From: Escherichia phage F13
Reading direction: 5' to 3' (one strand)
Sequence record: OP745617
Length of the DNA stretch: 64,000 nucleotides
Both the position numbers and the translations under genes were made by a program. The notes beneath the pieces were generated by a model that was not told where the DNA came from, did not search any database, and saw only the letters and a program-made list of their open reading frames with translations. Of the stretch, positions 46,452-50,296 are shown in pieces. Position 1 is the first letter of the stretch, and each line of letters opens with the position of its first letter.

Positions 46452-46870
46452 GACAATTCCTCTAAATACTTGATGATGTGATGAATAGTTCCCTTCACGA
46501 TTATCTCACGTTGAACGTCTGCAGTATTATAACGCTTTAATTCAATAGAAGGGTGGACTAAATAAAACATCTTCTCAGAATCAACCTTAAGCAGAACAAA
46601 TGATGGGTATTTCCAATCATTCCACGAAGAAAGAAAGCTGCATTGGCCTTTCTCAAATGCATTTCTGAAAGGTGCAGTGGTGGCCCTTGCAGGCCACGAT
46701 TCAAAGAACTTCATTTCAAGCCAAAAGCCGCGCCCTTTCCGGTTGGTGCCGATTACGTCCGGCACGCCATCACCAGTCATCGACTCGATTCGTTGAAGCT
46801 TCAATACCGATTCTGAATGCTTCTTCAAAGGCACGAATATGTATTTCTGCTCACGGTTATTTGTTGCCAT
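46448..46870 (-). CDS. VRR-NUC domain nuclease
   Basis: GDGVPDVIGTNRKGRGFWLEMKF matches the G-x-PD…E-x-K core of VRR-NUC/PD-(D/E)xK nucleases. Confidence 0.55.
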   Translation of the reverse strand: MATNNREQKYIFVPLKKHSESVLKLQRIESMTGDGVPDVIGTNRKGRGFWLEMKFFESWPARATTAPFRNAFEKGQCSFLSSWNDWKYPSFVLLKVDSEKMFYLVHPSIELKRYNTADVQREIIVKGTIHHIIKYLEELS

Positions 46871-49754
46871 CTGGATACACCTGTTTGATCACGTCAACGA
46901 TGAACATGTCAATGCCTTCAAGCTTACGACCTTTCATCAGGAAGAATGCGCCGTTCCCGACGTTTTCAGCGATGTACTTCCCGTACTTCTGGAATTTCTC
47001 TGGACGAATCCTGAAGCGCATTGGCGAGTCGGTCGAGTCATCCTTGCACATAAGGTCGATGAACTGAGTCTCAAGCTTGTTCCCGTACTGGTCAAACTCT
47101 GCGTAGCGGCCATCAGCTTGAAGACCCTTTTTAAGCTTGCCGTGCTTTGTATAGATGCCGCGCTCAAGTCGTTTACGGATGCGTGTTGCTTCGTTCTCGT
47201 CCGCAAGCACTTTCTTTGTCAACTTGCCGATTACTATTGCGCGCTCGTCATCACCGACTTCCTTCATCTGGCGTATTGAAGCGCCGGACGTCACGCCAAT
47301 CAGATAAGGGTCATTATATGCCCATCCGAACTTTGTGTGCATCTCTGTCAGGTCGCCATATTTAACTTCAGCATTGGCCAATGCATCCTTCTGCTTTTGC
47401 GTTAAGGTTCCGGCTTCACGCGCTTCGATATATTTCATCGCCTTCACCATGCCGTACCCTTTCGCGTTCATGATGCCGCCGATTAGCTTTCCGTTCGCGA
47501 TGGTCCAGTTCATTGAAGAGTGATCAGGGTCGATTGGCACATAATCCACGCCTTCCTTCGCAAGTTCACGTAATATCGCAATCGTCTGGTCTTCGTCCTT
47601 AGCAGCGCGTAAGCAGGCTGCGGCAAATTCCAACGGGTAGTGTCGCTTAAGCCACAAGGTCCAGTAGGTCACGACCGCGTATGACACGGAGTGTGACTTG
47701 TTAAAGCCCCATGACCCGAACGTGGCCATCGCTTGCCAAAGCTTTCTTGCATCCGCTTCCGGTACGCCATTATTTATTGCGCCTGCAACAAAGTCCTCTC
47801 CAAGCTTGTTAAAGTATTCTTCACCCTTACGGCCTGACATTGCCTTACGTACAGCGGATGTTTTCGCCCAGTCGAATGAACCAATCTCTTTAACCACGGC
47901 CATGATTTGCTCTTGGTAAAGAAACACGCCGTAAGTCTCTTTTAGGTACGGCTCAATCTGCGGCACGTCGTACTCAATCGGCGCACGCCCTGCCGCGCGT
48001 TCAATGTATTTCTGGGCCATACCGGATGACAACGGGCCAGGTCGACCCAAAGCCGTCAGGTTGTCGATTTTGTTAAAGTTATCGACGTGCACAAAGTTTG
48101 TTACTGAGCGTACAGCGTCGCCTTCAAACTGGAAGATGCCTGACATCTTGTTTTCGTTAAGAATGTCAAGGACGCTTTGATCATCAAGCTTGATGCCGTA
48201 GAGCGTTTCAGCATCAATAACGCCTGTATCAGAAATAATTCCGAGAGTACGAAGGCCCAACGCATCAAGCTTCAAAAGGTTAAGGTATTCGCTGTCAGGC
48301 TTATCAATTTGTGCAATCCCTTCTGCAGTTACAGTACAGTAATCAGAGATTGGGTCATTACACACAATGATTCCCGCTGCGTGAACACCTGTGTGGGACG
48401 GGTGAATCTCAAGGTCGCCCATGCAACGCGCGGCATCAGGATATTTGGCCACGAACTCTTGACCCGTGGTTGTTGTTGCAAAGGTATCCTCCAGGCCGTG
48501 ACCATAACGGGCGTCACCGGATGAGTATTCAAGCAGTGCGTTTTTAATGTTGGCCGTTTCGTGGTATCCAATGTTGAACTTCTTACCAACCTGCGCCATT
48601 ACTGAGTTGGCCTTAAGCGTGTTGATGTTGCCAAGCTTTGCAACGTTCATTTCGCCGTATTTCTCTTTAAGGTAATCAAACACCATGTAGCGTTTGGTAT
48701 CTTCAAAGTCGATGTCGATGTCAGGAAGGTCGGCGCGGCTTACGTCGATGAATCGGGCAAACAGCAGCTTATACGGGATTGGGTCCACTTCCGTGATGCC
48801 AAGGCAATAGCAAACAAGTGAACCAGCCGATGAGCCGCGAGCAGGACCGACGAGCATTTTTGTTTTTGCGAATCGTACAAGGTCCGCTACTACCAGAAAG
48901 TATGAGTCGAAATCTTTCAGCTGAATCTGGTGAATTTCTTCGTTGAAGCGGTCCTCATATTCCTGAGTCCATTCTTTGATGTGACCTGCTTTGAGACGGT
49001 ACTCCATCCCCTCACGCGCAAGCTTTACCATATCACCAGCAAGGTGAATAATCGGTGCCTTGCGTAATTTCAGGTCAAGTCCGACTATGCCGTTTGCTAT
49101 GTCAACAGCATTGGCCGTTGCCTGATTCAGCTCATCTTCCGTCAAGATGCCTTTAAGCTGTTTGCGCAAGTCTTCCGCGTCAACGATGCAGTGCGGCTTG
49201 ACCGTGTCGCGCACTTCCCAAGCATAAGCAAAGTCAACGTGCTCAGGTGAAGGCATGTGGTTGTATCCGGTTAAAACCAGCGGCCTTCCGTTGCTGCGGT
49301 GAGCCAACACCTGGCGCTTAGCCAAAAGGAACGATGATGGGTTGACGTCTATATAATCGTAGTCCTCTGGCCGCAGCAACTCCACGGCACCGCCACAGAA
49401 TTTAACGACGCCATCGAGCGCACCGAACTCTGCACGGGTAAGCCCGCCGCGCTGCGTTGAAAGTGTTGTAGCGTTGTAAAAAGATTTTAAGTCAAGGGCC
49501 AATATCCAAGCCTTCGGTTTGAATCCCTTTTTCGGGTCCGCATCAGGGTCGATGATTGGAATCTCCATCCCAAACATAGGCTTAATATCATTTTTCTGGC
49601 ATTCCTTTTCCCAGCGAACGTGACCCCATGTATTGTTATCAACTAATGCCGCGACTTCGCAGCCCAACTCTTTGAGCCGTGCTATAATTTCAGGATGCCG
49701 TCCATAAACTTCTTTGAACGTGTAACCGCTGCGAACTCTCAATTGTGGAAACAT
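46857..49754 (-). CDS. dnaE: DNA polymerase III alpha subunit (DnaE-type replicative polymerase)
   Basis: 965 aa; N-terminal PHP-like region; GPARGSSAGSLVCYCLGITEVDP matches the DnaE catalytic signature. Confidence 0.9.
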   Translation of the reverse strand: MFPQLRVRSGYTFKEVYGRHPEIIARLKELGCEVAALVDNNTWGHVRWEKECQKNDIKPMFGMEIPIIDPDADPKKGFKPKAWILALDLKSFYNATTLSTQRGGLTRAEFGALDGVVKFCGGAVELLRPEDYDYIDVNPSSFLLAKRQVLAHRSNGRPLVLTGYNHMPSPEHVDFAYAWEVRDTVKPHCIVDAEDLRKQLKGILTEDELNQATANAVDIANGIVGLDLKLRKAPIIHLAGDMVKLAREGMEYRLKAGHIKEWTQEYEDRFNEEIHQIQLKDFDSYFLVVADLVRFAKTKMLVGPARGSSAGSLVCYCLGITEVDPIPYKLLFARFIDVSRADLPDIDIDFEDTKRYMVFDYLKEKYGEMNVAKLGNINTLKANSVMAQVGKKFNIGYHETANIKNALLEYSSGDARYGHGLEDTFATTTTGQEFVAKYPDAARCMGDLEIHPSHTGVHAAGIIVCNDPISDYCTVTAEGIAQIDKPDSEYLNLLKLDALGLRTLGIISDTGVIDAETLYGIKLDDQSVLDILNENKMSGIFQFEGDAVRSVTNFVHVDNFNKIDNLTALGRPGPLSSGMAQKYIERAAGRAPIEYDVPQIEPYLKETYGVFLYQEQIMAVVKEIGSFDWAKTSAVRKAMSGRKGEEYFNKLGEDFVAGAINNGVPEADARKLWQAMATFGSWGFNKSHSVSYAVVTYWTLWLKRHYPLEFAAACLRAAKDEDQTIAILRELAKEGVDYVPIDPDHSSMNWTIANGKLIGGIMNAKGYGMVKAMKYIEAREAGTLTQKQKDALANAEVKYGDLTEMHTKFGWAYNDPYLIGVTSGASIRQMKEVGDDERAIVIGKLTKKVLADENEATRIRKRLERGIYTKHGKLKKGLQADGRYAEFDQYGNKLETQFIDLMCKDDSTDSPMRFRIRPEKFQKYGKYIAENVGNGAFFLMKGRKLEGIDMFIVDVIKQVYPDGNK

Positions 49755-50296
49755 TATTTACTCCAGATGTCATATACGCCAATTTGTTGGCAGACTTTGT
49801 GCAGTAATATTACGTCGTCTAATGCACGGTGCTTCTGTTCATATTTTCCGAAATATAATTCATACAACTCTTGAAGCTTAACTCTTCGGCCAAAAATAGG
49901 CAAGGTTTGCTCAACTGTACATATGTTTATTTCTGGAAAATTAACATCATCAAGCGTAAGTCCTTCGCGCTGTAGTGCATAATCAAGAATGTTTTTATCG
50001 AACGCATGGTTGTGCGCGATAGTTGCATCAGTCTTCTTGAAGATTTCTTTTAGCTGCGGGACGAAATTGATGAACGGTGGATTGCACTCAAGGTCTTCAT
50101 TTGTTAATCCGGTAATCTTTGTGATGATTTCTTCGATCACAATTTCAGGATTAATTATGAATTCAAAAGTTTCAAGAATCTCTTTGCCGTCTGTCAACAG
50201 ACCTGCAAATTCAATAGGGCGCGGCTGCATCCCAAGCGGCGCTTTCGGGTGCACTGTCAATCCGGTTGTTTCGAAGTCATAAGGGAGAAATAACAC
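49754..50296 (-). CDS. DnaQ-like 3'-5' exonuclease (Pol III epsilon-like proofreading subunit)
   Basis: Exo I motif DFETTGL, HNHAFDKNIL and C-terminal HRALDDV motifs; 180 aa. Confidence 0.8.
   Translation of the reverse strand: MLFLPYDFETTGLTVHPKAPLGMQPRPIEFAGLLTDGKEILETFEFIINPEIVIEEIITKITGLTNEDLECNPPFINFVPQLKEIFKKTDATIAHNHAFDKNILDYALQREGLTLDDVNFPEINICTVEQTLPIFGRRVKLQELYELYFGKYEQKHRALDDVILLHKVCQQIGVYDIWSK

Follow-up and report, generated by a model that had tools for sequence, protein, structure and literature searches.

Family C enzymes are the rarest DNA polymerases of tailed phages, with 947 PolC recorded against 6,560 PolA and 2,857 PolB in 18,382 genomes (PMC11348598). A replication module of this kind has been described in Pbunavirus Banzai, where the genes homologous to those considered here were independently identified as encoding homologues of Pol III alpha and epsilon, a Holliday junction resolvase and a translocase resembling Ino80/CHD1L (PMC12390725, published in 2025). 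Here we describe the corresponding locus in a 64,000 nucleotide stretch of Escherichia phage F13 (OP745617), which we refer to as the window. The segment 46857-50296, on the minus strand, encodes a DnaE-type family C polymerase and a separate DnaQ-like exonuclease which very probably form the two-subunit polymerase core of a virulent PB1-like myovirus of the genus Wifcevirus.

Comparison with existing records left little doubt about the identity of the locus. The segment matched Escherichia phage vB_EcoM_SP13 (OP352608.1, genus Wifcevirus) from end to end at 100% identity and shared 94-97% identity with approximately 25 other Wifcevirus genomes (WFC, WFH, FEC19, vB_Eco4M-7 and Bas98-101 among them). 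In the GenBank records of this genus the two genes are labelled 'DNA polymerase III alpha subunit' and either 'DNA polymerase III subunit epsilon' or 'DNA polymerase exonuclease subunit' (locus tags SP13_063/064 and Bas101_0044/0045). The pair in SP13, Bas101, WFC, WFH, FEC19 and vB_Eco4M-7 is the same locus as that described here, in the same gene order and with the same annotation. Window coordinates equal those of the SP13 record plus 2068. Positions 1-2500 of the window map to 66719-69219 of that record, which implies a redundancy of 3,598 bp and a unit genome of 68,786 bp; the record appears terminally redundant to this extent, as 68787-72384 repeats 1-3598. The window is thus a circular permutation of the unit genome that includes all but ~4.8 kb of it.

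The initial annotation of this DNA, made from the sequence alone, had placed a phage DnaE-type polymerase and a separate DnaQ-like proofreader at 46857-50296. Both were confirmed, and these coordinates are exactly those of the two genes; the statement that a bacterial-type Pol III core is uncommon in phages also agrees with the survey counts given above. The phage is a known one whose polymerase core has already been annotated, and the module is common to the well-studied Pbunavirus group. As the genes are already in GenBank and the module is in print for the sister genus Pbunavirus, the finding as such matters little; two questions that the analysis raised are taken up below.

Polymerase and exonuclease genes

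The DnaE signature quoted in the initial annotation (GPARGSSAGSLVCYCLGITEVDP) was present in the open reading frame (ORF) of 965 amino acids (aa) designated dnaE (Table 1). Pfam analysis of this protein returned DNA_pol3_alpha (3e-63, 214 bits against a cut-off of 23.9) and DNA_pol3_finger (2e-37, 128 bits against a cut-off of 22). It also matched phrog_405 (2.6e-271) and the Pol III alpha chains of the PDB (~1e-84). Among the NCBIfam models, the superfamily model TIGR00594 scored 474 bits, above its cut-off of 434. The bacterial DnaE equivalog NF004226 scored 495.7 bits against a cut-off of 1002, and all other DnaE equivalogs were likewise below their cut-offs.

The phage protein was aligned with E. 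coli DnaE and three clade members. The match to E. coli DnaE was limited to residues ~208-798 (33% identity), within which PDIDIDF (residue 344) and KLDALG (residue 495) aligned to E. coli D401/D403/D555. The three corresponding aspartates of the phage protein were invariant in 21 clade members. The alignment and the structural model described below indicate that the Pol-beta-like active site is intact and that the fingers and a C-terminal OB fold are present.

The N-terminal PHP domain was degenerate. Its motif I is QLRVRS in the phage protein and HLRVHS in E. coli DnaE, and the phage state was kept across the 21 clade members; in Thermus aquaticus DnaE this motif is HLHQHT. PHP domains that proofread by themselves carry an HxH...H pattern, and the metal-ligand positions considered here are those of other PHP domains. 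As every histidine of motif I is replaced, the metal-binding histidines of the phage domain appear to be lost, which makes the DEDDh exonuclease, acting in trans, the most likely source of proofreading.

An AlphaFold2 (AF2) model of DnaE residues 800-965, built with 79 homologues, had a predicted local distance difference test (pLDDT) score of 94.3 and showed a five-stranded OB fold with a single helix between strands 3 and 4. Foldseek matched this model to OB-fold proteins (Rim1 SSB, RPA, Stn1/Ten1, LysRS and M. tuberculosis DnaE1, 7pu7). The layout is that of DnaE and not of PolC, with the exonuclease as its own gene, none inserted in the PHP domain, and the OB fold at the C-terminus. The phage protein terminates a few residues past the last OB-fold strand and E. 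coli residues ~1079-1160 have no counterpart, from which it follows that the tau-binding domain of E. coli alpha is absent. A search of the whole of DnaE for a beta-clamp motif (Qxx[LMIVF]x?[FLYW]) found none, and the segment holding the E. coli QADMF motif is deleted in the alignment. The missing tau domain and clamp motif are consistent with DnaE equivalog scores far under the cut-offs.

The exonuclease gene starts at a GTG codon preceded by AGGAGG. Its product contains YDFETTGL and matched Pfam RNase_T (1e-21, 78.7 bits against a cut-off of 24) and phrog_192, 'DNA polymerase exonuclease subunit' (2e-37). The ExoI-III residues D7, E9, D99, H156 and D161 correspond to D12, E14, D103, H162 and D167 of E. 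coli epsilon and were conserved in four clade members; overall identity to epsilon was 24%, and the NCBIfam epsilon equivalogs scored far under their cut-offs. The protein stops at residue 180, straight after the catalytic domain, and lacks the C-terminal alpha-binding tail of epsilon. A candidate clamp motif, QIGVY, is found at residues 171-175, the position of the epsilon clamp motif; it was rejected as neither the glutamine nor the spacing is conserved in Pbunavirus E215 or the Burkholderia phage.

The error-prone DnaE2 subfamily of NCBIfam also matched the polymerase (330 bits). Together with the loss of tau- and clamp-binding elements, this would suit a repair or translesion enzyme of the DnaE2/ImuC type, with host Pol III replicating the phage genome. 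That match is, however, far below its cut-off of 939 bits and weaker than the DnaE match at 496 bits. Furthermore, dnaE has a proofreading exonuclease gene as its partner, shows strict conservation throughout the clade and is accompanied by genes for the primase, helicases and ligase, and this virulent phage has no second polymerase. We consider a translesion role highly improbable.

Two irregularities were seen in dnaE homologues. In Escherichia phage Ro157lw a 127-bp tandem duplication (about 640-900 of its locus, ~47400-47500 of the window) breaks the frame and leaves two annotated ORFs of 795 and 197 aa; this split may be an assembly artefact or a real break just ahead of the part encoding the OB fold. 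Two clade homologues are longer than the rest: P0115 (1232 aa), with a match to Pfam Intein_splicing, and P0095 (1215 aa), for which no intein match was recorded. There is no intein in SP13 DnaE.

Table 1. Features of the polymerase locus and of the genes discussed with it, in window coordinates
Feature	Coordinates	Strand	Basis
DnaE-type family C DNA polymerase, 965 aa (SP13_063)	46857..49754	-	Pfam, PHROGs, PDB, identity to OP352608.1
Degenerate PHP domain, about residues 1-225 of DnaE	49080..49754	-	Pfam PHP, 26.7 bits against a cut-off of 26.4
Palm, thumb and fingers core of DnaE; catalytic D345, D347, D497	47766..49028	-	Alignment with E. coli DnaE
C-terminal OB-fold domain, residues 838-960 of DnaE	46875..47243	-	AF2 model and Foldseek
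Stand-alone DEDDh 3'-5' exonuclease, DnaQ-like catalytic domain only, 180 aa	49754..50296	-	Pfam, PHROGs, motif alignment
RecU/Hjc-like PD-(D/E)xK nuclease, 140 aa	46448..46870	-	
SNF2-family ATPase/translocase, 507 aa	44928..46451	-	Pfam SNF2-rel_dom, Helicase_C; phrog_62
Three conserved genes: 87 aa; 185 aa (DUF7307, Pam3 gp33-like); 286 aa (Pam3_Gp34 family)	43116..44853	-	
286-aa gene of the above	43116-43976	-	Pam3_Gp34
Terminator-like hairpin, 8 bp stem with 7 GC, T-run; parts the metabolic unit from dnaQ	50315..50334	-	
Metabolic unit: 331-aa protein, ThyX, PNKP-type HAD phosphatase, SDR, VOC-like protein	50351-54941	-	
SDR (227 aa) and VOC/glyoxalase-like protein (183 aa)	50351-51682	-	
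PNKP-type HAD phosphatase	51748-52620	-	
Signal-peptide-like protein, 148 aa	53434-53880	-	
331-aa protein	53946-54941	-	phrog_4828
281-aa protein	55075-55920	-	phrog_4765
Signal-peptide-like protein, 180 aa	40256-40798	-	
ATP-dependent ligase	40975..41952		
Dda-like helicase	56074..57258		
RepB-type primase	57745..58827		
VapE/D5-like helicase	60137..61807		

The polymerase unit, replication genes and processivity

The dnaQ stop and dnaE start codons overlap by 1 nucleotide (TAATG), which suggests coupled translation of the two genes. The 3' end of dnaE overlaps the 140-aa nuclease gene by 14 nucleotides, and the nuclease and SNF2 genes overlap by ATGA. The strongest terminator-like hairpins of the minus strand were located at 55046..55026, 50334..50315, 43098..43077 and 40902..40881. 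These hairpins and the overlaps define a single unit running from 50296 down to 43116, which comprises dnaQ, dnaE, the nuclease gene, the SNF2 gene and three conserved genes of unknown function and is closed by the hairpin at 43098..43077. By the same reasoning, the hairpin at 50334..50315 makes the metabolic genes, from 54941 down to 50351, a separate unit. In Escherichia phage AV128 an extra 50-aa ORF (3202-3354 of the AV128 locus) lies between dnaQ and dnaE; the 1-nucleotide overlap of the SP13 type is not genus-wide.

The nuclease had been labelled VRR-NUC in the initial annotation. Pfam VRR_NUC (PF08774) did not match the 140-aa protein or its relatives, four members being searched at E up to 10, and the protein had no other Pfam match; no significant sequence match to RecU, Hjc or VRR-NUC was obtained. 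A profile of 57 nuclease homologues returned weak matches only from the PDB sequences (RecU, E 0.05; VRR-NUC 4qbo, E 0.63). Residues D38, E52, K54 and Q76 were invariant and fit a PD-(D/E)xK site, and the protein has both the predicted fold and the catalytic residues of this superfamily. Its family was decided by structure prediction and fold search, in which the modelled fold was nearest to the Holliday-junction resolvases RecU and Hjc. The protein is best called a RecU/Hjc-like junction resolvase on this model; 'VRR-NUC' names the correct superfamily and not the nearest family. Among 70 matches to the nuclease, the named ones and those on long contigs were phages of this clade.

The SNF2 label of the initial annotation held, with Pfam SNF2-rel_dom (1e-21, 77.8 bits against a cut-off of 24.9) and Helicase_C (6e-11, 43.1 bits against a cut-off of 23.5) both above threshold and a match to phrog_62 at 1e-106. 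Of the three genes that follow, the 286-aa and 185-aa products matched only Pam3_Gp34 (4e-86 for the former) and DUF7307 in Pfam, families of no known function, and gave no PDB sequence match. The 286-aa protein has a low-complexity flexible linker and an acidic C-terminal tail whose final phenylalanine is invariant in four genera. Similar tails bind partner proteins in E. coli SSB and T7 gp2.5, a likeness that we regard as a lead only.

Other replication genes in the window encode a RepB-type primase, a VapE/D5-like helicase and a Dda-like helicase; an ATP-dependent ligase and a MazG-like protein were also identified. Only one DNA polymerase is annotated in the SP13 and Bas101 genomes. Neither SP13 nor the curated Bas101 record has an annotated clamp or clamp loader, and none was found by Pfam and PHROGs scans of the replication arm and early region, which covered the ORFs of unknown function from 148 aa upwards. 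Searches by tblastn and phmmer with E. coli DnaN and DnaX-gamma returned a single P-loop match, in the Dda-like helicase (E 0.28). The clamp search proposed in the initial annotation was therefore negative by annotation, Pfam, PHROGs, tblastn and phmmer.

We propose that the DnaE-DnaQ core, with the primase, the two helicases and the ligase, replicates the phage genome, in which case host Pol III alpha and epsilon would not serve as the synthesising and proofreading subunits. The pair heads the terminator-bounded unit, within which the resolvase and the SNF2 translocase probably process branched or recombination-dependent replication intermediates before packaging. With no tau domain, canonical clamp motif, epsilon tail or detected clamp or loader, docking and processivity must differ from those of the E. 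coli holoenzyme.

Several points weigh against this proposal. The roles given to the core in this phage are deduced from sequence and models; only the gene overlap and co-inheritance point to a physical association of DnaE with DnaQ; the call on the PHP metal ligands combines a sequence alignment with residue roles from other PHP domains; and, as the lack of a clamp is a negative from sequence searches, a structurally divergent processivity factor could hide among the proteins to which no function is assigned. In a variant that differs in processivity alone, the phage core would recruit the beta clamp and clamp loader of the host by non-canonical contacts. Enzymes of the DnaE family are normally clamp-dependent and no phage clamp was found, both of which count for such recruitment. 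Against it, DnaE has no Qxx[LM]xF-type motif, the sole one in DnaQ (QIGVY) is not conserved in the clade and the tau-binding domain is absent, and we regard use of the host clamp as unlikely, if still worth keeping in view.

Very short infection cycles have been reported for this phage genus (PMC11990801). The locus raises the question of how a family C polymerase replicates processively in such a genus without a tau domain, a clamp motif or a detectable clamp. This reduced architecture, together with an exonuclease that lacks the epsilon tail, is noteworthy for studies of minimal family C replicases, and it is a trait of the whole, already described clade.

Metabolic genes and nucleotide chemistry

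The initial annotation had linked the Pol III-type core to the metabolic genes immediately upstream, on the grounds that such cores are reported mainly in phage lineages with unusual nucleotide chemistry. Put in full, this would mean a core specialised to incorporate a non-canonical nucleotide made by the adjacent cluster, and chemically modified phage DNA. The position of the cluster is in keeping with this: the genes immediately upstream of dnaQ encode ThyX, a PNKP-type phosphatase, an SDR, a VOC-like protein and a flavoprotein-like protein, and in Pbunavirus and Carpasinavirus those for ThyX and the phosphatase show synteny with dnaQ-dnaE.

Analysis of the individual genes did not bear it out. 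ThyX was identified by Pfam Thy1 (1e-30). The 331-aa protein matched amine-oxidase-type flavoproteins only in its N-terminal GxGxxG segment; its gene lies upstream of ThyX in Wifcevirus, Pbunavirus and Carpasinavirus, with one to five small ORFs between, and both genes are absent in the Burkholderia relative. The phosphatase has a conserved C-terminal domain of ~110 aa (FRERNAxYGxN ... KLTRF..SGLKHEDS), for which no family was found in Pfam, NCBIfam or the PDB sequences. Between the phosphatase and dnaQ are the SDR and the VOC/glyoxalase-like protein, the latter with a weak Pfam match (E 0.0025) and no PHROG. At this position Carpasinavirus XcP1 has an SDR and a short unannotated ORF, and Pbunavirus has neither. 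Every gene of 50351-54941 and the MazG gene were searched against Pfam, NCBIfam, PHROGs and the PDB sequences for signature enzymes of base modification (PurZ/2-aminoadenine, DpdA/7-deazaguanine, and hypermodification of 5-hydroxymethyldeoxyuridine (5-hmdU) or 5-hydroxymethyldeoxycytidine (5-hmdC)); none was found. These searches yielded only ThyX, HAD_PNKP, the SDR, a weak VOC, a weak MazG and the FAD-binding N-terminus.

The cluster also varies in content while dnaQ-dnaE stays fixed, Pbunavirus being without the SDR and VOC-like genes and the Burkholderia relative without ThyX and the 331-aa gene. Phage records with a DnaE homologue numbered 1,373 and came mostly from Pbunavirus and from phages of Mycobacterium, Streptomyces, Gordonia and Bacillus, which speaks against a concentration in lineages with unusual nucleotides; to our knowledge, most of these phages are not reported to have modified DNA. 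The sequence thus lends no support to the supposed link, the cluster being a separate terminator-bounded unit of variable content with no recognisable base-modifying enzyme.

Restriction sites provided a further line of evidence. Where 283.5 GATC sites were expected, the window (1-64000) had 100 (z -10.9), and for CCGG the observed number was 78 and the expected one 149. Seven GC-rich hexamer palindromes (AGCGCT, TCCGGA, CCGCGG, CGGCCG, GGTACC, ACCGGT and CGTACG) were absent, and 19 EcoRI and 6 EcoRV sites were left. Such avoidance is the pattern expected of DNA that can be cleaved at these sites and so argues against a modification protecting them, as do the restriction digestion patterns reported for PB1-like phage DNA (PMC12390725). 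Conversely, the BASEL paper reports that Wifcevirus phages resist EcoRI and EcoRV in vivo, and almost all restriction systems tested, by a mechanism that is not known, which keeps the idea of modification alive. Taking both sides together, we hold a core specialised for a non-canonical nucleotide to be very unlikely. Equally unlikely is the more specific proposal that the resistance comes from a novel modification made by the 331-aa, phosphatase, SDR and VOC-like proteins, with a clamp-less DnaE/DnaQ adapted to incorporate or tolerate it; the lack of a signature enzyme, the separate unit and the avoidance of restriction sites likewise argue against this. It is no less likely that one of the many small early genes encodes a protein with an anti-restriction function than that the DNA is modified.

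The question of what protects Wifcevirus DNA from restriction is thereby raised beside that of processivity. The sequence evidence does not make it likelier that either will prove unusual.

Other genes around the metabolic unit were also recorded. The 281-aa protein encoded between the Dda-like helicase and this unit is mainly Lys/Ala/Glu-rich low complexity with a short globular C-terminus. Two proteins, of 180 and 148 aa, have signal-peptide-like N-termini and gave no PHROG or Pfam match; the 148-aa gene lies inside the metabolic unit, with the 331-aa gene on one side and ThyX on the other. An Rfam scan of the whole window gave no match.

Relatives, origin and comparison with known systems

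Full-length relatives of DnaE at 52-62% identity were found in Xanthomonas (Carpasinavirus), Pseudomonas (Pbunavirus) and Burkholderia phages. The order exonuclease, polymerase, nuclease, SNF2 was held in Pbunavirus E215, Carpasinavirus XcP1 and Burkholderia phage Karil-Mokiny-1. The flanking order was also shared (Dda-like helicase ... ThyX, phosphatase, exonuclease, polymerase, nuclease, SNF2 ... MazG, ligase), the Burkholderia relative being without ThyX. DnaQ-like homologues occurred in 361 phage records, of which 294 were from Pseudomonas, 26 from Escherichia, 9 from Serratia, 6 from Burkholderia and 6 from Xanthomonas phages, these being hosts of PB1-like phages. The two proteins have diverged in parallel from those of Pbunavirus (56% identity for DnaQ and 58.5% for DnaE). 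The best 120 DnaE matches in a large protein database had 56-99% identity and 870-1232 aa, and all were on contigs of at most 74 kb. All of the best matches fell within the clade.

Since both protein families are bacterial in origin, assembly contamination or recent capture from E. coli could be envisaged as the source of the genes. Identity to the E. coli proteins was low (33% to DnaE, over the core only, and 24% to epsilon), and the genes are set in a phage genome with conserved synteny. Besides the phage-sized contigs of the best 120 relatives, a scan of 185,579 species genomes (one per bacterial species) revealed only relatives of 30-36% identity in metagenome-assembled genomes and two contigs of ~310 bp. 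Relative synonymous codon usage (RSCU) of dnaE and dnaQ correlated with that of the other phage genes (r 0.80) better than with that of E. coli genes (r 0.37). The host-like codon usage and host affinity that the initial annotation had named as grounds for refutation were thus not found; the genes are genuinely those of a phage, and host capture or contamination was rejected, its probability being in our estimate close to nil. The two short contigs (309 and 312 bp) belong to Xanthomonas pisi DSM 18956 and carry fragments 99-100% identical to phage DnaE; they are probably sequencing contamination.

Among described systems, the DnaE-like polymerases of actinophages and SPbeta-like Bacillus phages are also family C enzymes of tailed phages and share ~30-37% identity over the catalytic core with the phage DnaE described here. 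The match spans only residues ~245-780, and these polymerases have other N- and C-terminal domains and another gene neighbourhood.

The E. coli Pol III core is similar in belonging to the same superfamily, with the same catalytic Asp triad, a non-catalytic PHP domain, a separate DEDDh proofreader and an OB fold after the fingers and HhH region. Unlike E. coli alpha, the phage DnaE has no tau-binding C-terminal domain or internal QADMF-type motif, and its PHP domain is shorter with even fewer metal ligands. Unlike epsilon, the phage exonuclease has neither the C-terminal alpha-binding tail nor the clamp motif. No theta, clamp or clamp loader of the E. coli Pol III type was detected in the phage.

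The likeness to Pbunavirus is far more extensive. The DnaE of Pbunavirus E215 has an insert of ~70 aa (about residues 780-860), Lys/Glu/Leu-rich and probably a coiled coil, between the HhH region and the OB fold, which is absent in Wifcevirus, Carpasinavirus and the Burkholderia phage; conversely, Pbunavirus lacks the SDR and VOC-like genes that Wifcevirus has between phosphatase and exonuclease. The Banzai module otherwise has the same order of exonuclease, polymerase, Holliday junction resolvase and SNF2-like translocase, and shares the Dda-like helicase, ThyX, MazG and ligase with the locus described here (PMC12390725).

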